The position numbers were made by a program, and so were the translations under genes. From an uncultured Chloroflexia bacterium (GTDB taxonomy: Bacteria > Chloroflexota > Dehalococcoidia > Dehalococcoidales > RBG-16-60-22), in NCBI GenBank assembly GCA_963727315.1, contig CAVSFE010000002.1, forward strand, positions 279,723 through 343,722: DNA of 64,000 bases, read 5' to 3'. The first letter of the stretch is position 1. Every line of letters starts with the position of its first letter. Shown here piece after piece: positions 4,918-53,957 of the stretch. The notes under the pieces are model-generated. The model saw only the letters and a program-made list of their open reading frames with translations, searched no databases and was not told where the DNA came from.

Positions 4918-6981
4918 ATGGCAAAATCGGTAGAAATTAAAGACGGACTCTGCTACATGTGCACCAATGCCTGCCCCACGCGCGTCCATGTACGCGACGG
5001 CAAAGCCATAAAAATCGATATCGCCGATCCGAAGGTGGCCCACTGTCCCCGCTGGAAAGCCCAGCTTGACTTTATCTATCACCCCGAGCGCCTGCAATAC
5101 CCCCTGAAGCGCGCGGGAGCGCGCGGCGGCGGCTCGTGGCGGCGCATCTCCTGGGACGAGGCCCTGGATACCGTGGCGGAGAACCTGCAATCGGCCAAAG
5201 ATAAATACGGAGCGGAGTCGGTGGTCTTCTGGATTGCCTACACCAAAGAGCCCCGCCCCTATTTCCACCGCCTGGCGCACGCCTTCGGCTCGCCCAACTA
5301 CTGCACCGAGAGCAGCAACTGTTTCTCCGGCACCTGGATTGCCGCCAACCTGACCTACGGACCGGAATACTCTTACATGGCGGGCTCGGGCGGCAGCGCG
5401 GGACCGGAAACGCGCTGCAAGCTCATCTGGGGCGCGGCCGTGGTCTCCTCTCCGAATGTCTGGCAGGAAAACCTGGACGCCAGGAAAAAAGGCGTCAAGC
5501 TCATCGTCGTCGACCCGCGGCGGACAACAATAGCCTCAAAAGCCGATATCCACCTGCAGCTGCGGCCCGGCACTGACGGCGCCCTGGCGCTGGGCATGAT
5601 GAACGTCATCATCGGCGAAAATCTCCATGATAAAGAGTTCTGCGAGAAGTGGACGGTCGGTTTCGACGGACTGAAAAAGCTGGCCGGGGAATATACCCCA
5701 GACCGCGTTGAGAAAATAACACGCGTCCCCGCGGCTAAAATCAGAGAAGCGGCGAGGCTCTACGCCTCCAGCAAGCCGGCCAGGCTCCACCTCAGCAGCA
5801 ACAGCACCACCCATCACGCCAACGGCGTCCAGAACCACCGGGCGGTCATCCTGCTGGCAGCCATCACCGGCAATATCGGCGTCACGGGCGGCAACCGGCT
5901 GGGCGACTACGCCGCCGTCCACCCCAACGATATCACCCTGCACGAAAGAGTGGTCGATATGCCGCCGGGCATCGGCTCGAAGCGCTTCCCGATATGGACG
6001 AAACGCTACCGCGAAATGCAGTCGAACGCCATCGCCGACCAGATAGAAAGCGGCGACCCGTATCCCCTCAAGGCGCTTTTTTCACCGGGGCTGGACATGC
6101 AGTTTTTCGGCAACTCGAACCGGTTCGCCGAAACGGTTAAGAAGCTCGATTTCATCGCCGTGAGCGAGTATTTCCACACGCCGGGCACGCAGCTGGCGGA
6201 TATCGTGCTGCCCATCGCGTCCTGGCTGGAGCGGCCGATTCTTTTGACCGACTACGGCGGCTACGCCAAGCTCATCGAGCCGGCCATAAAACCGGTTGGG
6301 GAAAGCCGGACAGAGTGGGACATCTACGCCGCGCTGGCGCAGCGACTGGGCTTCGGCGACCTGTTCTGGGACGGCGATTTCTATAAGTGCGCCGACCATA
6401 TCCTGGAACCAATGAATATAACTGCCGCCGACCTGAAACAGCGCCCCGAAGGCATCAAACTCCCCACCCGGCCCAGACCGGAGAAAAGCTACGAAAAAAC
6501 GGGTTTCCCGACTCCCTCCGGCAAGGTGGAAATAGCCTGCGCCGCGCTGGCGGAGCAGGGCCTCGACGCCCTGCCGGTATATCATGAGCCTCCCGAGAGT
6601 CCGCTGAGCCGGCCCGACCTGCTGGGAAAATACCCGCTGGTCATGACCTCGGGGGCGAGGGTCATGGCGTATACCCACTCGCAGTTCCGCAATATCCCGC
6701 GCCTGCGTAAACTCATGCCCGACCCCCTCGTTGATATCAATCCCGCCGACGCCGCCCCGAGGGGCATCAAGACCGGCGACACGGTGACCATAAGCTCGCC
6801 GCGCGGCAGCATCAAGATGAAAGCTAACGTCACCGACGCCATCCTGAGCGGCGTCGTTTCCCTGCCGCACCACTGGCCGGGCGAAGCTAATGTCAACACG
6901 CTGGTCGATGACCGCACCCTCGACCCGATTTCAGGTTTCCTCCCCTGCAAATCGCAGCTCTGCCAGGTCACCCGGGGCTGA
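4918..6981 (+). CDS. Molybdopterin (bis-MGD) oxidoreductase, DMSO-reductase superfamily, apparently cytoplasmic
   Basis: 687-aa ORF. It has the N-terminal 4Fe-4S motif CYMCTNAC...C(PRW), molybdopterin-binding segments (VVDPRRT, FIAVSEYFHT) and a C-terminal beta-barrel domain (VDINPADAAPRGIKTGDTVTISSPRGS). There is no twin-arginine signal and no in-frame TGA. Confidence 0.85.
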   Translation: MAKSVEIKDGLCYMCTNACPTRVHVRDGKAIKIDIADPKVAHCPRWKAQLDFIYHPERLQYPLKRAGARGGGSWRRISWDEALDTVAENLQSAKDKYGAESVVFWIAYTKEPRPYFHRLAHAFGSPNYCTESSNCFSGTWIAANLTYGPEYSYMAGSGGSAGPETRCKLIWGAAVVSSPNVWQENLDARKKGVKLIVVDPRRTTIASKADIHLQLRPGTDGALALGMMNVIIGENLHDKEFCEKWTVGFDGLKKLAGEYTPDRVEKITRVPAAKIREAARLYASSKPARLHLSSNSTTHHANGVQNHRAVILLAAITGNIGVTGGNRLGDYAAVHPNDITLHERVVDMPPGIGSKRFPIWTKRYREMQSNAIADQIESGDPYPLKALFSPGLDMQFFGNSNRFAETVKKLDFIAVSEYFHTPGTQLADIVLPIASWLERPILLTDYGGYAKLIEPAIKPVGESRTEWDIYAALAQRLGFGDLFWDGDFYKCADHILEPMNITAADLKQRPEGIKLPTRPRPEKSYEKTGFPTPSGKVEIACAALAEQGLDALPVYHEPPESPLSRPDLLGKYPLVMTSGARVMAYTHSQFRNIPRLRKLMPDPLVDINPADAAPRGIKTGDTVTISSPRGSIKMKANVTDAILSGVVSLPHHWPGEANVNTLVDDRTLDPISGFLPCKSQLCQVTRG

Positions 6982-29542: not shown

Positions 29543-30095
29543 ATGCACCATAGCCTGAAGTTCTATAGCGGCAACCGCCCGATGGTGTTACGGTTCTACA
29601 TGTTCTTCGGTGGGCTGACCCGCGTTCCCCTGCTGGGAAGGCTGGCGAGGTGGACGGCTAACGCTTACGGGCAGCAACCTGCACCGCGCCTACCTGCTGA
29701 CGCCGCCGGAAGCATTTGAGCTGGTCAACACCGCCGAGGGGCTGGCGGTGACCGCCTGCGACTGCCGCCGGGTCTTTAAAAACTGCGACCATCCGTTGGA
29801 CACCGAGATATTGCTCGGCCCGACGCGCCACGTCATGCTGGAGGCCATGCCGAAAGACTCACGTGAAATAACCCGTGAAGAAGCCGGAGAAATCCTGCGC
29901 CGGAGCCAGGCACGCGGGCTGATTTTCACCATCCTCAAGTGCCGGGAGGACTTTTACGCGATATGCTCCTGCTGTTCCTGCTGCTGCGTGCCTCTGCGAC
30001 TCAGCAAACAGTATGGCATCGGCGGGGCGCTCGCCAGGCACGCAGATATCGTCAAAGAGTACCGTGAATTCCAGTCGGCCTATAAAGGCGATTAG
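29543..30095 (+). pseudogene. Cysteine-rich (probable Fe-S binding) protein of unknown function, frameshifted as assembled
   Basis: The N-terminal part from ATG 29543 (MHHSLKFYSGNRPMVLRFYMFFGG...RWTANAYG) continues in the next frame as SNLHRAYLLTPPEAFELVNTAEGLAVTACDCRRVFKNCDHP...AICSCCSCCCVPL. The switch lies near 29650..29660. Confidence 0.6.
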
Positions 30096-30876
30096 CCCAG
30101 GAAGCCGGTGAGGGTGCTGGAGAACTCCGCGAGCGCGTCGCGATGGACGTTATGGCCGTGGTTCTCGAAGACTTTCACCTGGCAATCGGGAATGACTTTC
30201 GCCGCCTGGTAGGCCTGCCTTACCGGCACGATGGGGTCTTTCGCGCCCCATACCAGCAGCGTCGGCACCGCCACCTCGGCAAGCCTGTCCTTCAGCACCA
30301 CAGACTGTTGTCTGAGGGTCGTGATGTTACCGCCGACGGTCATGCTGGCCGGTGAAAGCGGCATGATGAACTCGGCCGGATTCAAATGCTCGGCCAGCCA
30401 TTTAATACTTTTCAAAACCCCGATGGTCAACGCCCCGAGCGACCGCAGTAAAGCCCGTATCGATAGCAGCCTGACCCAGAAGGCGATTTCCCGGTCCAGG
30501 CACAGGCTGCTCACCAGCACCAGTTTCTTTATTTTCTGGGGTGATTTGAGGGCGTAGTCCAGCGCGACGCCGCCCCCCATGCGAATGCCCCACGAGGTAG
30601 AATTTCTCCAGGCCGAGGTTGCTGGCGAAGCTGCCGAGGAACTCGGGAAAGCTCGGGGATATAGTAGTTGCCGTCCAGCGGCTGGCTGCCCCCGTAGCCG
30701 GGCAGGTCCGGGGCGTAGACCGTATATTTCTCCGAGAGCTCGATGATGTTCTTTCCCCAGGTGCGCGCATCCCCACCCCCGCCGTGGATTACCACCAGGG
30801 GCTCGCCATGACCGGCGGTGTAATAATGGACGTCGCGTCCGTCAACTTTTATGGTCTTGCCCTGAATCTCATTCAT
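30092..30876 (-). pseudogene. Alpha/beta hydrolase, two frameshifts as assembled
   Basis: Three consecutive frames carry MNEIQGKTIKVDGRDVHYYTAGHGEPLVVIHGGGG...YYIPEL, then FPEFLGSFASNLGLEKFYLVGHSHGG (nucleophile elbow), then GVALDYALKSPQKIKKLVLVSS...VFENHGHNVH. The switches lie near 30650 (TTT/CCC run) and 30585 (G6 run). Removing one nt at each gives ~260 aa. Confidence 0.85.
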
Positions 30877-32589: not shown

Positions 32590-33197
32590 TTACTTCGTAT
32601 GCGTCCCGAACGCTCCCGGCCCCCCCACAAACTCCGCCGGGTACTTAAATTTCATTTTTACCAGCGCCACCATCTGCTTGCCGAGGTCGTCCAGGGCTTT
32701 CAGGCACTTGGGCATCTTTTGAAGCTCCTCGGGACTGCCGACGTAGGCCGAGACCTGGTTGGCGGGCAGCATCCGCCGCTGCACGATGAAGTAGCGTCAG
32801 GTCTTTTAAAACGTTCGCCATCCCCAGGCTGCCGCAGGAAGTCACCGCCCCGCAGACTTTATTGTTGTAGTTATGCTCCGTGCCGCGCGAGGGAAATTGA
32901 GCGGTCGATGACCGCCTTCGCCTGCGCCGTCATGCCCCAGAAATACACCGGCGTCCCCAGGATCAGGCCGTCCGCCGCCATGATCTTCTCGAAAAGCTCC
33001 GGCGCGTCGTCCTTGATGTGGCACTTGCCCGCCTTCATGCAGTCCCAGCAGCCGTCGCAGGGCTGGATGTTTTTCCCGGCGACGCTGTAAAGCTCGGTCT
33101 CCGCCCCTTCTCCCGCCGCCCCGGCTAAAGCCTTACCCAGCATGGCGACGGTGTTGCCGTTTTTCCTTGGACTGAAAGAGATGGCTAAGATTTTCAT
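32590..33197 (-). pseudogene. Iron-sulfur flavoprotein / NADPH-dependent FMN reductase family, two frameshifts as assembled
   Basis: The N-terminal part reads MKILAISFSPRKNGNT...CDGCWDCMKAGKC (compact Isf-type Cys motif)...GTPVYFWGMTAQAKAVIDRS. It continues in a second frame (GTEHNYNNKVCGAVTSCGSLGMANVLKDL) and a third (YFIVQRRMLPANQVSAYVGSPEELQK...). The switches lie near 32860 and 32790, giving ~201 aa when repaired. Confidence 0.75.
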
Positions 33198-33220: not shown

Positions 33221-33353
33221 ACCTCACCCTGCCCTCTCCAACCTCTTCATTTTTCCGACCCTTCACTATTTGGTTGGAGAGGGTATTAAAATGAAGAGGG
33301 GCTGACGCCCCTCTTAGACGCCCTGCTTGTGGGGGCGTGCGAAGTGCCCCCAC
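33221..33353. repeat. GC-rich palindromic repeat family, copy R3
   Basis: CCTCACCCTGCCCTCTCCAACC...GGTTGGAGAGGG (stem arms 33232..33243 and 33272..33283). Hairpin AAGAGGGGC-TGAC-GCCCCTCTT lies at 33294..33315, followed by AGACGCCC. An extra hairpin GTGGGGGC...GCCCCCAC lies at 33329..33353. Confidence 0.8.
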
Positions 33354-33370
33354 ACACTTATCGTATCAAC

Positions 33371-35228
33371 CTATTTATCGTAATCGGCGTCGGTCGCCGC
33401 GTCCGGTAGCCCGCAAGAGTCGTCCTCGCACTCGGCGCCGGACTTCTTGGCGCGCCACTTGTCAACGGACGCGCTCCCCGAGTAACCGTAGTCCGCGGCC
33501 TTCCACAGCGGGCTCGTTTCCCCGCCCACGACGATGATATTGATGTTTTCCGGCCGATGATAGGGGGCGATGAGCGCGTCGTCCGGTAGGTTTTTCCACG
33601 AGGCGTATGGCTCCACCCCCTTGTAGGCCTCGGATGCCACCAGCATGTCGATATAGTCGGTCTTCCAGTACTGCCCCGCCCTCATCTTGATGTTCTGCGA
33701 TAAATGCCGCGCGAAGTCCAGCTTGGTAGTAAAGCCCTCGTTCTCCTTCAGGTTCCTGGCGACCATCGGGTCCATGATTATCGTCGCCGAGGAATTGAGC
33801 GGGGGCATGACGGCCAGTTCGATATTCAGTTCTTCCGTTATCGAGCGGTTGGCGGCCGCGCCGGTACTGTTCAGCATGGACCACCCCCGGAAGATGCTCA
33901 CCACGCTCTCGTCCGCCTTGAAGCCCTTGCCCGCGTGGAAAGGCTCCCAGACGCTCCTCTCCTCGTTCTCGGCGCAGCACATATTATTATAGGTATGGTT
34001 GTTCCCCTGGGAGCTCCAGAGCGTCCTTCCGGCCTTGGCATAGCCCCAGCAGATGCTCATCAGCGTCCAGGCCCTGCCGATGACGGAGTTCGCCATGTTC
34101 ACCGCGCTGAAAGCCCCGACGCCGCTGTTCATGCCGATTTCATTGCGGATGGGCCCGTTCACCAGGAGCATGGCCTCGAATGGGGTCGTCGAGGGCATGA
34201 GCGACGGTTGCCTGAGGGACGCGACGGCGAGTATCACCGGGAAATATTCCGGCCTGGCGCCGGCCATGACTGCGATAACCGCAATCTCCGCCACGGTGTG
34301 CCGGGCGACCTCTCTGGTTTCGAACTGGAATGTCTCGGCGACGACGTCGTCCGGGGCGGCGGCGGTGCCGGCGAGCATCTTCTGCACCCGCTCTTCGGTG
34401 GGCAGGATTATCGGCGAGCCGTCCGTCCAGCCCTTTTCGTAGAAGAGGCGCTGCAGATTGTCTTCCGTGTCCGGCTTCAGGTACTTCGGGGCCGGGACGG
34501 CTTTGACCGCTTGAGTTGCCCCAGCCTCCGGTTTCCTTTCTTTTAACGGCTTGGTCAGGACGTCGATTATCTCTTCGATGACCGGCCGGCCGGTGTCGGG
34601 GTCGTTGCCGACGATGTATTTATCGAGGGCTTCGGGGGACAGGCCGATAACCGGGTGCGGCGTAAAAATAATGGGCAAATAGCTTTTCGACGTTCTCTGG
34701 TTTTCGTCGGCGACGCTCTTGAAGGCGAGCGTCGAAACCGGGGCAACCGGTATGCCGTAAGTATATTCGAGTTTGCGGGTGCCGGCAGCGACCGCTGCCA
34801 CGCAGCCCGGTCAGCCCGCCACCCCGAGGACGACCGCGTTCCCTTTCACTTTGACCTCTTCCCAGAGCTCGTTGTTATCGTCCATGAAGACGCTGCCCGG
34901 TTTGCGCTTGCGGATGGTGGTGACGGACGGCATGTTTTCGGCAAACCACTTCTGCAGTTGCCGCATGAACTGGTAGCTCCCGCCGAAGCCGGTATCCACG
35001 AGGTAGACCGTTTTTTTATCCAGCGTACCCAGCCGCTTGGCCATCGGGCCGGAAGGCGGCGGGCCGCCAAATCCCGGCGGAGGTCCTCCCTGAGGTCTGG
35101 GAGGTCCGCCCATAGGACCTCGCGACGGCGCCGCTGGGAGGTCCGCCCATGCCCGGCGGAGGCCCTCCCGTAATTTTCTGGACTCCCGCTTCGGGGCTGA
35201 TGACATTATCCAGCAGTTGAATCGTCAT
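33371..35228 (-). CDS. Candidate selenoprotein: UGSC-family-like N-terminal domain (G-U-P-G-C) fused to a ~370-aa conserved uncharacterised domain. It needs UGA read-through at 34811..34813 and repair of one frameshift near 35114..35133.
   Basis: ATG 35228 follows GGAGG (MTIQLLDNVISPEAG...). A Pro/Gly-rich linker carries a 1-nt frame switch. The sequence then reads KRLGTLDKKTVYLVDTGFGG...NAVVLGVAG-TGA-PGCVAAVAAGTRKLEYTYGIPVAPVSTLAF...PHPVIGL. ORFs 34811..35206 and 33371..34801 are in the same frame. The C-terminal part contains GWTDGSPIILPTEERV, AVMAGARPEYFPV, VNGPIRNE and CAENEERS. Confidence 0.6.
34778..34813 (-). promoter_or_regulatory. In-frame UGA plus SECIS-like stem-loop (candidate selenocysteine insertion signal)
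   Basis: The minus strand reads UGA CCG GGC UGC GUG GCA GCG GUC GCU GCC GGC ACC. The stem is GGCAGC / GCUGCC (34794..34799 and 34784..34789) with apical loop GGUC (34790..34793). A possible lower GUG/CAC extension exists. The loop begins at nt 21 counted from the U of UGA. Confidence 0.5.
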
Positions 35229-35257
35229 GGCTTTCCTCCGTTCGATGGTTCTAGTAT

Positions 35258-36223
35258 TCAGGTGCGGGGGCCGATGTTCTTGACCCAGGTCAGGTCCTCT
35301 CTGGCCCTTCCCCACCCTGCCTCCGCCGCCCCCTGCATCATCGGGGCCGGGTTTTTCCTCATTTCTTCCATGCGCTTCCGGTTCGCCTCTTCCTGCCGCT
35401 TCATGCCTTCGGGGGTGGTATAGTTGGCCATCCGCTCGCAGATGCCCCGCATCATCTTCTCCGGTTCCGGCATCGGCATAACGTAAAGCACGTCGTTTTC
35501 AATCCCCTTTTTAAAGATATGCGCCAGCTCGACGGGATCGAAGCCGAAAGAGTAATGGTGGCGCATAAACGCGATGGTCTTTTCATTGGTGTTGTAGCCG
35601 GTGTTGGCCAGGCGCTTCGGGCGCGTGTAGGAAGATTCGCCGATGTTGGTCTTGATGCCGCCGGGGCAAAGGCAGGATACGCCGATGCCGTACGGCTTGA
35701 GGGCGATGTAATAGCTCTCCATGAGGTTGATGACCGCGGCTTTAGCCGCCGAGTACGGGGCTGTCCCGACTCCTCCCATGAGTCCCCCCATCGAGGCGGT
35801 GGTGGCGATATGCCCGCCCTTGCCGGCCTTTATCATGCGAGGTACGAACGTCACCATGCCGTTGACGACCCCGCCCAGGCAGACTCCCATGACCCAGTCG
35901 TAGTCTTCAAACGTCGAGGCTTCCGCCGGCCCGAAGGCATTGACGCCCGCCGTATTGAATAAAAGCTGCGGCGGCTCCCCGAACACCTTTTCCACCTCGT
36001 CGGCGGCTTCGGCATAAGCCTTGCGGTCGGTGATGTCCAGCTTGATGGCATGGATTTTCACTTTTTTATCTTTAAAATAGGCCTTGGCCTCGTCGAGGTG
36101 GTCCTGGCGGATATCGGCGATGCAAATTTTGCAGCCGGCTTCCGAAAAGACCTTGGCCTGGCCGAGCCCGGCCCCGGAAGCCCCTCCGGTGATAAACGCG
36201 ACTTTGCCCGCGAAATCTTTCAT
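35258..36223 (-). CDS. SDR family oxidoreductase (paralog 2)
   Basis: 321-aa ORF with TGGASGAGLG (NAD(P) binding) and YSAAK (YxxxK). The gap to the downstream gene start is 29 nt. Confidence 0.9.
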   Translation of the reverse strand: MKDFAGKVAFITGGASGAGLGQAKVFSEAGCKICIADIRQDHLDEAKAYFKDKKVKIHAIKLDITDRKAYAEAADEVEKVFGEPPQLLFNTAGVNAFGPAEASTFEDYDWVMGVCLGGVVNGMVTFVPRMIKAGKGGHIATTASMGGLMGGVGTAPYSAAKAAVINLMESYYIALKPYGIGVSCLCPGGIKTNIGESSYTRPKRLANTGYNTNEKTIAFMRHHYSFGFDPVELAHIFKKGIENDVLYVMPMPEPEKMMRGICERMANYTTPEGMKRQEEANRKRMEEMRKNPAPMMQGAAEAGWGRAREDLTWVKNIGPRT

Positions 36224-36247: not shown

Positions 36248-37234
36248 TTATTTCTTCGGCGGCGGCGCGCCGGGCATACGGGACGGCTTGACCCACGTCA
36301 AATCTTTGCGCGCCTGCCCAAAACCCACGTCCCCGCTGTTCCGGTACGGACTCATGGGCTGGCGCTTGGCCATCTCCTCGAACCTTTTTCGCATCAGCTC
36401 TTCCTGCCGCTTGATGCCTTCGGGACTGGACCAGTTGATGACCCGCTCGAAGTTGTCCCGCAGCATCTGCTCGGCGTTGGGATACGGGATGATATAGAGT
36501 TGCTCGTTCTCGATGCCCCTCTTGAGCCACCCCGCCAGCTCCACGGGGTCCATCCCCTGCGCGTGAATGGAGCGCAGCAGGTCGATGGTCTTTTCCGTGA
36601 CGTTATAACCGGTATTTTTCAAATGCTCCGGCCGCGTGTACACCGCCTCGGCGATGTTCGACCTGATATTGGCAGGGCAAAGGACGGAGACGCCGATGCC
36701 ATAGGGCTTGAGCGCCGTGTAATAGCTCTCCATGAGGTTATTGACCGCCGCCTTGGCCGCCGAGTACGGCGCGCACCCCGATGTCCCCATGAACCCTCCC
36801 ATCGAGGATGTGGTGGCGATATAGCCTCCCTGGCCGGCCTTGATCATGCGCGGGACGAACGTCACCATGCCGTTGATAACGCCGCCGAGATCGACGCCCA
36901 TCACCCAGTCGTAGTCTTCGAACGTCGAGGCTTCCGCCGGCCCGAAGGTGTTGACGCCCGCGGTATTGAACAGCATCTGGGGCGGGCCCCCGAACGCCTT
37001 TTCCACCTCGTCGGCGGCTTCGGCATACGCCTTGCGGTCGGTGATATCCAGCTTTATGGTATGGACTTTAATCTTTTTGTCTTTGAAATACGCCTTCGCC
37101 TCGTCGAGATGGTCCTGCCGGACATCGGCGATGACGATTTTACAGCCCGCCTCCGAGAACACCTTGGCCTGGCCGAAGCCGGCGCCGGAAGCCCCTCCGG
37201 TAATAAACAGGACTTTACCCGCAAAATCTTTCAT
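36248..37234 (-). CDS. SDR family oxidoreductase (paralog 1)
   Basis: 328-aa ORF with TGGASGAGFG and YSAAK. The first ~190 aa are nearly colinear and mostly identical with the adjacent SDR. The gap between the two genes is 24 nt. Confidence 0.9.
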   Translation of the reverse strand: MKDFAGKVLFITGGASGAGFGQAKVFSEAGCKIVIADVRQDHLDEAKAYFKDKKIKVHTIKLDITDRKAYAEAADEVEKAFGGPPQMLFNTAGVNTFGPAEASTFEDYDWVMGVDLGGVINGMVTFVPRMIKAGQGGYIATTSSMGGFMGTSGCAPYSAAKAAVNNLMESYYTALKPYGIGVSVLCPANIRSNIAEAVYTRPEHLKNTGYNVTEKTIDLLRSIHAQGMDPVELAGWLKRGIENEQLYIIPYPNAEQMLRDNFERVINWSSPEGIKRQEELMRKRFEEMAKRQPMSPYRNSGDVGFGQARKDLTWVKPSRMPGAPPPKK

Positions 37235-47630: not shown

Positions 47631-50624
<2,994 letters not shown>

Positions 50625-50696
50625 TGCTTCAGGTTTGATATTAGATGTATTTTGATTGCAGATGTATTTTACTTTAGACCCATCAACTCTATTCGG

Positions 50697-51264: not shown

Positions 51265-53957
<2,693 letters not shown>

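Follow-up and report, generated by a model that had tools for sequence, protein, structure and literature searches.

A probable selenoprotein gene of the UGSC family, fused to a conserved C-terminal domain, in an uncultured Dehalococcoidales bacterium

On the minus strand of a 64,000-nucleotide (nt) stretch of DNA from an uncultured Dehalococcoidales bacterium (contig CAVSFE010000002.1, positions 279,723 to 343,722; hereafter the window, in whose coordinates all positions are given), two open reading frames (ORFs), at 34811..35206 and 33371..34801, share one frame and are separated only by a single TGA codon (34813..34811) and three sense codons (P-G-C). We conclude, with a probability of about 0.88, that they constitute one gene encoding a selenoprotein of about 620 residues, in which the UGA would be read as selenocysteine (Sec, U). 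The bare ORF-TGA-ORF layout and the folding energy of the hairpin that follows the TGA each lie within what chance would produce; the excess over chance comes from homology and conservation, that is, from a Pfam match spanning the TGA, from the retention of TGA in all orthologous loci studied, and from covariation in the hairpin.

A conserved in-frame TGA and its cysteine-containing homologues

Reading through the TGA gives the product ...KGNAVVLGVAG-U-PGC-VAAVAAGTRK..., in which the putative selenocysteine (34811..34813, minus strand) and a cysteine form the motif U-P-G-C; the gene ends at a TAG stop codon (33371..33373, minus strand). An earlier note on this DNA, made from its letters, had described the two ORFs as sharing one frame with a lone TGA and three codons between them, and had derived a U-x-x-C motif from the read-through; the coordinates are correct on the sequence, from which U-P-G-C is read directly. 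The layout by itself is common: in this window, with a GC content of 58%, 46 TGA sites are flanked on each side by 50 or more open codons. A scan of these 46 sites revealed a selenoprotein-like context at none besides 34811..34813.

When one genome was scanned for each GTDB species, 399 genomes were found to contain a relative, and the orthologue counts given here refer to the best 80 loci from these genomes. The 80 loci come from Dehalococcoidales and other Chloroflexota, Bacillota, Desulfobacteraceae, Acidobacteriota/Terriglobia and Actinomycetota, and thus from at least five phyla. In every one of them the upstream ORF is in frame, the codon is TGA, and the context is G-[VIL]-x-G-TGA-[P/I]-G-C, with strong conservation of the protein on both sides of the TGA, the pattern sought in a selenoprotein gene. 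Neither a sequencing error nor a two-gene arrangement can account for a TGA kept in 80 of 80 loci with conservation on both sides.

The proposal of two separate genes, a 131-residue protein ending at the TGA and a 476-residue protein starting at a GTG three codons further on, nevertheless agrees with how relatives are recorded by gene callers and in databases. The best 120 matches in a collection of 5.8 billion proteins are all 407–479 residues long, cover at most 78% of the query and comprise the post-TGA part only, many of them beginning with the same V/M-AAVAAG; the NCBI entry HSW57649.1, of 472 residues, is of this kind, and GTG or ATG starts are often present right after P-G-C. These records start just past the TGA, which is how gene callers deal with a Sec codon. 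Two genes would, however, halve the UGSC domain described below and leave the G-C that follows the TGA invariant although it would be non-coding; the GTG has neither a spacer nor a ribosome-binding site before it, the frame is kept across the TGA in all 80 loci, and the homologues with cysteine are single uninterrupted proteins. We consider a two-gene arrangement highly improbable.

The cysteine-containing homologues were found with the post-TGA part (P0001) as the query in an exhaustive search of 50%-identity representatives, which matched 3,541 clusters, among them uninterrupted proteins of 545–570 residues with 34–44% identity. Of nine full-length homologues that were aligned, five align a cysteine with the TGA and retain the second one, as CPGC (P0140), CSTC (P0142, P0144 and P0159) or the canonical CGSC (P0164); in the others the motif is lost. 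Uninterrupted cysteine homologues of this kind, a classical Sec/Cys signature, show that the two halves are one protein. The earlier note had suggested asking whether homologues continue through this position and carry cysteine or selenocysteine there: they do read on through it, with TGA in all of the close relatives and cysteine in distant full-length ones.

In 13 loci the orthologue is adjoined by paralogous genes that have an in-frame TGA of their own, within the motif U-D-G-C (L009:126, L019:317, L024:5858, L059:2157, L061:2156 and L074:255) or U-H-G-C (L067:2321, L068:5876, L070:5872, L071:5990, L073:2730, L076:5889 and L077:2542). These paralogues have the same fused C-terminal domain and extend about 435–480 residues past their TGA. 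Some Acidobacteriota carry two such selenoprotein genes in tandem, and in L059 and L061 a U-D-G-C gene lies beside a U-P-G-C gene.

A covarying stem-loop 3′ of the UGA

In bacteria, the selenocysteine insertion sequence (SECIS) is typically a hairpin that follows the UGA directly and carries G-U in an apical loop some 20 nt further on. RNAfold predicts an apical stem of 7 bp here (34800..34794 with 34789..34783), closed by a GGUC loop (34793..34790), within an extended minus-strand hairpin of 14 bp with two bulges at 34776..34809 (−23.5 kcal/mol, z −1.87). The earlier note had proposed a stem GGCAGC/GCUGCC with a GGUC loop whose first base is nt 21 when the U of the UGA is nt 1. This stem (34799..34784) and loop start are present in the sequence and RNAfold folds them as described, but their energy alone is not significant when compared with shuffled sequences.

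The case for the hairpin comes from relatives. In alignment A2, which covers a gap-free 52-nt region around the TGA in 81 sequences, the SECIS-like apical stem-loop (34783..34800, minus strand; columns 17–34) is conserved, with compensatory changes at the column pairs 18-33, 19-32, 21-30 and 24-27 and with AU-to-GC switches at hairpin pairs within several phyla. The loop occurs as GGUC, AGUU, GGUU or CGUU, and its centre, G25 and U26, is invariant in the 81 sequences. The SECIS-like hairpin of the earlier reading is, in short, a conserved one: it lies 3′ of the UGA, displays G and U at its apex and covaries. The lowest helix (34806..34809 with 34776..34779; columns 8–11 with 38–41) is mostly unpaired in relatives and hence not conserved. 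The hairpins of the U-D-G-C and U-H-G-C paralogues have other sequences and stand at the same distance from their own TGA.

Assignment to the UGSC family

The read-through protein, with cysteine replacing the stop, was used as the query for searches of Pfam and NCBIfam, and UGSC was the sole family matched in each library. The Pfam match, to PF24696 (UGSC), reaches 46.4 bits where the gathering score is 25; it aligns residues 54–196 to profile positions 16–157 of 172 and runs across the TGA. The UGSC-type domain so defined (34619..35047, minus strand) also matches NCBIfam NF041046, ‘UGSC family (seleno)protein’, at 48.2 bits. The earlier note had named this family, and it is indeed the one found, above the gathering score in Pfam and below the cut-off in NCBIfam. 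Two orthologues, P0016 and P0079, already bear the NCBI label ‘UGSC family (seleno)protein’, one of them being HSW57649.1.

The protein departs from the family type in motif and in domain make-up. Its motif is U-P-G-C (U-I-G-C in four orthologues), so that the U-x-x-C spacing of U/C-G-S-C is retained and the G-S is not; and, where the family models describe a small single domain (147 positions in NCBIfam, 172 in Pfam), the UGSC domain here is followed by a linker and a domain of about 370 residues.

Proteins containing UGSC are recognised as an established family of selenoproteins (PMC2398784; PMC13188914). The family rests purely on bioinformatics, with 255 Sec and 21 Cys forms in the Global Ocean Sampling (GOS) metagenome, a UxxC motif and a function that is not known (PMC2398784), and it is still described as uncharacterised in reviews of 2022 and 2026 (the latter PMC13188914). 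We place this gene in the known UGSC selenoprotein family, in a fused U-P-G-C form.

Weighing the evidence for selenocysteine

Several observations weigh against a selenocysteine codon here, or against a functional copy. Compared with dinucleotide shuffles, the folding energy gives z −1.4 at 61 nt (matched by 21 of 200 shuffles) and z −1.9 at 42 nt (matched by 10 of 200); four of the seven apical pairs are fixed by the codons for Ala-Ala-Val-Ala-Ala; and Rfam yields no match to a SECIS family, either at the gathering threshold or at E values up to 10. The NF041046 score is under that model's equivalog cut-off of 125, as are those of the fused homologues P0164 (85.7 bits) and P0140 (40.6 bits). 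We know of no UGSC-family protein that has been shown by experiment to contain selenium. Nearly all such selenoprotein families are, according to the 2026 review, based on bioinformatics (PMC13188914). Moreover, no selA, selB, selD or tRNA-Sec gene is found within the 64-kb window, and the first 30 or so codons of the gene are out of frame as assembled, so that this copy could be defective.

The constraint from the coding sequence defines which pairs of the hairpin can be used as evidence. Since Ala-Ala-Val-Ala-Ala forces four G-C pairs, the informative pairs are only the three of codon third positions (18-33, 21-30 and 24-27). At these, 85.3% of cells are paired, compared with 60.8% in shuffles, a level that none of 500 shuffles reaches; the covariation score is 0.714, as against 0.317 in shuffles and at most 0.206 when the partner is slid.

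That no Sec machinery is encoded nearby had already been remarked in the earlier note, with which our searches of the window agree: the sole SelD-like match is ThiL, a tRNA scan of the window found no tRNA, and tRNA scans of the window together with 60 related loci found no tRNA-Sec. At the level of the lineage only, predicted selenoproteins number 46 and 49 in Dehalococcoidia genomes catalogued in BSepDB (PMC13326102). The lack of such machinery in the window would suit a UGA decoded in some other way, by near-cognate Trp or Cys read-through or through reassignment of UGA, or a TGA that is simply an error for TGC or TGT. An error is ruled out by the TGA in 80 independent assemblies of 80. TGA is also the normal stop in 6 of the 25 annotated genes of the window, which indicates that UGA is not reassigned genome-wide; simple read-through would leave a covarying hairpin at the SECIS distance with no role, and cysteine at this position in distant homologues is the classical Sec/Cys pattern. 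Decoding other than as selenocysteine is, in our judgement, the least probable of the explanations considered. From this body of comparative sequence evidence, we hold with high confidence that UGA encodes selenocysteine in this gene family, and we infer that selenocysteine would also be inserted in this organism, provided that its genome encodes the Sec machinery.

The 5′ end of the gene and the integrity of this copy

Position 35228 marks the true ATG, preceded at a distance of 5 nt by a Shine-Dalgarno sequence GGAGGA (35234..35239, minus strand); it lies in another frame than the TGA-containing ORF, a point that the earlier note missed. The true 5′ end of the gene, MTIQLLDNVISPEAGVQKITGGPPPGMGGPP (35139..35228, minus strand), is in frame +1 with respect to the remainder, and the corresponding motif is in the frame of the TGA in 78 of the 80 orthologues; in the remaining two it is cut off by the end of a contig or by a stretch of N. 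In orthologues the N-terminus reads M-T-I-Q-L-L-D-N-V-M-S-P-E..., followed by a variable-length Pro/Gly-rich stretch and then AKRLDTL-KTVYLVD. Three-frame translation against these N-termini confines the frame break to a C/G-rich Pro/Gly repeat at 35115..35138 (minus strand).

It could be that the family is real but that this copy is a pseudogene, in which a genuine +1 frameshift has inactivated the gene or shortened its N-terminus. The conserved N-terminal segment (MTIQLLDNVISPE...) is after all out of frame, unlike in 78 of 80 relatives. Against this, the rest of the gene is intact, with no further stops and 81% identity to the nearest orthologue, the break falls within a C/G-rich repeat, and at least three other genes in the 64 kb are similarly broken, which points to assembly indels rather than to selective decay. 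We regard a pseudogene as unlikely. As several neighbouring genes are broken in a similar manner, the 5′ break is probably a 1-nt assembly indel; that this copy is intact is somewhat less sure than that the gene family uses selenocysteine. Programmed +1 frameshifting at the break was also considered and set aside, the relatives being single-frame and other genes nearby being broken too.

Three of the broken genes can be described here. An alpha/beta hydrolase gene occupies three frames of the minus strand at 30092..30876 (30529..30876, 30402..30776 and 30092..30580), its two breaks falling inside a span of about 150 nt. An FMN_red / iron-sulfur flavoprotein-like gene at 32590..33197 (minus strand) stops after 108 residues (profile positions 1–96 of 152), and its likely C-terminal piece is found in another frame at 32590..32784. 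On the plus strand, a single ORF of 756 residues (51295..53565) joins a complete ArgS (residues 8–528) to the N-terminal half of TrpS (residues 560–755), which is probably an indel artefact whereby a stop was lost and trpS cut.

Protein architecture and the C-terminal domain

An AlphaFold model of the full-length cysteine homologue P0140 (mean predicted local distance difference test score, pLDDT, 84; predicted template modelling score, pTM, 0.85) has a parallel beta-alpha-beta N-terminal domain, in which the CPGC motif lies between a strand (94–100) and a helix (105–119). Foldseek searches of the PDB with this model gave weak matches only (TM score at most 0.2), to the FtsZ N-domain, a flavodoxin-like oxidoreductase and lumazine synthase, and none to thioredoxins. 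The model thus appears flavodoxin/Rossmann-like and does not support the ‘Trx-like’ (thioredoxin-like) fold that was proposed for the family in 2008.

The C-terminal domain (33374..34489, minus strand), of about 370 residues, is modelled by AlphaFold with a pLDDT of 91 and a pTM of 0.90. It has no Pfam or NCBIfam match, and a profile search of PDB sequences returned nothing credible. Class I fumarate hydratase came up as a candidate relative in a Foldseek search of the PDB, at TM scores of at most 0.21 and probabilities of at most 0.47, and was counted as no match. Conserved motifs of the domain include GWTDG.PI.LPTEERV, VMAGA.PE, VNGPIR, IGRA, ENEE, GGETSPLW and D.WR, and the near-invariant residues (WTD, PTE, an S/T-rich STTS, VNGP, IGR, ENEE and D.WR) are mostly polar or Gly/Pro, not Cys. 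Such a composition suggests that the domain serves catalysis or ligand binding and is not a second redox centre.

A cysteine in the sequence YNNMC is nearly universal in the Sec clade. Further cysteines occur in the tail, where C-x-D-x-S-C (CEDDSCGLPD; 33413..33430, minus strand) is predicted to be disordered (pLDDT below 50); a flexible tail C-x-D-G-x-C-G-L-P-D, with its CxxxxC spacing, is present in 46 of 78 orthologues, the gene described here among them. The distant cysteine homologues end at ...D-x-W-R and lack the CxxxxC tail, which might act as a mobile dithiol or bind a metal.

The two domains also occur in other arrangements. P0231 (460 residues) has the reverse order, with a domain of the C-terminal type at residues 18–327 and then the initial half of a UGSC domain, which breaks off at profile position 92, where another Sec codon presumably lies. 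The occurrence of the C-terminal domain on the N-terminal side of a UGSC domain reinforces the functional link between the two modules. In P0207 and P0260, of about 710 residues, the domain is apparently present and no UGSC part is recognisable.

Genomic neighbourhood

Upstream of the gene, and ending 29 nt from it, lies a gene for an oxidoreductase of the short-chain dehydrogenase/reductase (SDR) family (35258..36223, minus strand; Pfam adh_short), itself preceded by a second, paralogous SDR gene (36248..37234, minus strand; Pfam). The products of these tandem paralogues, of 321 and 328 residues, each have a C-terminal extension. About 45 of the 80 loci, every one of them from Chloroflexota, have an orthologous SDR gene as the immediate upstream neighbour, and the SDR gene at 35258..36223 is probably an operon partner, co-transcribed with the selenoprotein gene.

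Past the stop codon, a consensus scan detected a terminator-like hairpin with a T-rich tail at a distance of 56 nt (33294..33315, minus strand). The genes further downstream, for a protein resembling flavin mononucleotide (FMN) reductase, a flavodoxin and a cyclase, are shared by only about 10 loci. Elsewhere in the window, an uninterrupted ORF (4918..6981, plus strand) encodes a molybdopterin oxidoreductase related to the formate dehydrogenase alpha subunit, thiosulfate reductase and dimethyl sulfoxide reductase. A complete bacterial 23S rRNA gene is located at 47633..50625 (minus strand; Rfam RF02541, 2767 bits), and the protein relatives of the organism are Dehalococcoidales.

Proposed mechanism and significance

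By analogy with E. coli fdhF, the UGA at 34813..34811 would be decoded as selenocysteine: the stem-loop that begins about 11 nt past it, displaying the invariant G-U in its apical loop, would bring SelB with Sec-tRNA(Sec) to the ribosome. The resulting residue would sit in the N-terminal UGSC alpha/beta domain, with U-P-G-C lying where a beta-strand gives way to the start of a helix if it follows the model of the cysteine homologue. The UxxC/CxxC pattern suggests that selenol and thiol act as a redox couple, the likely role involving formation of a selenenylsulfide, in a protein whose UGSC domain is fused to the conserved, catalytic-looking domain of about 370 residues. The SDR oxidoreductase may well be the partner of this selenoprotein.

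The family is already known, and current understanding of Sec decoding is unchanged by this gene. Its interest lies in the fusion partner, in the conservation across phyla of selenocysteine alone, and in the shortened gene calls of its relatives. The fused clade is Sec-only over at least five phyla and often includes tandem paralogues (U-D-G-C, U-P-G-C and U-H-G-C), and in Dehalococcoidia the fused gene is usually paired with a dedicated SDR. We offer as a tentative suggestion, and one more doubtful than the Sec assignment, that the fusion of a UxxC module to the C-terminal domain may define an uncharacterised family of selenium-dependent enzymes. UGSC is among the most abundant selenoprotein families of the Global Ocean Sampling metagenomes and its function is uncharacterised; leads on it come from the conserved domain to which UGSC is fused here, from the paralogues in tandem and from the neighbouring SDR gene, and should the C-terminal domain prove to be the catalytic partner of UGSC, the family would gain its first functional handle. 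The gene also illustrates how a widespread protein can be stored almost wholly as fragments split at the Sec codon, the 472-residue NCBI entry lacking the Sec-containing N-terminal part, and that a true Sec codon is recognisable from raw sequence alone.

Comparison with known systems

The hairpin resembles the E. coli fdhF SECIS in lying immediately 3′ of the UGA, within the coding region, and in having a GGUC apical loop that contains the G-U recognised by SelB; this loop is reached at nt 21, one nt sooner than in fdhF (nt 22). The sequence is otherwise unrelated to that of fdhF, a bulged U is not obvious, and the lowest stem is not conserved. As in thiol-selenol oxidoreductases of the CxxC/UxxC type (the thioredoxin-fold selenoproteins), the two residues are separated by two positions and Sec and Cys interchange among homologues; unlike in those proteins, the model of the cysteine homologue predicts a parallel beta-alpha-beta, flavodoxin/Rossmann-like arrangement.

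The closest known system is the UGSC family itself (NF041046, PF24696; Zhang & Gladyshev 2008, PMC2398784), with which the protein shares the domain, the place of Sec in U-x-x-C, the large excess of Sec over Cys forms and a presumed redox role. It differs in having U-P-G-C rather than U-G-S-C, in a Pro/Gly-rich N-terminal insert, and in that the domain occupies the N-terminal third of a chain some 620 residues long, whereas the family type is a stand-alone domain of about 150. A fusion of the UGSC domain to a conserved domain of unknown function has a counterpart in the ‘UGSC/Unknown_1 fusion’ that appears in Fig. S1A of PMC2398784 for the GOS metagenome. Unknown_1 may or may not be the present C-terminal domain; the accessible part of that paper's supplementary sequences contained no matching peptide. 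A fusion of the canonical CGSC form to the same C-terminal domain does exist, in P0164.

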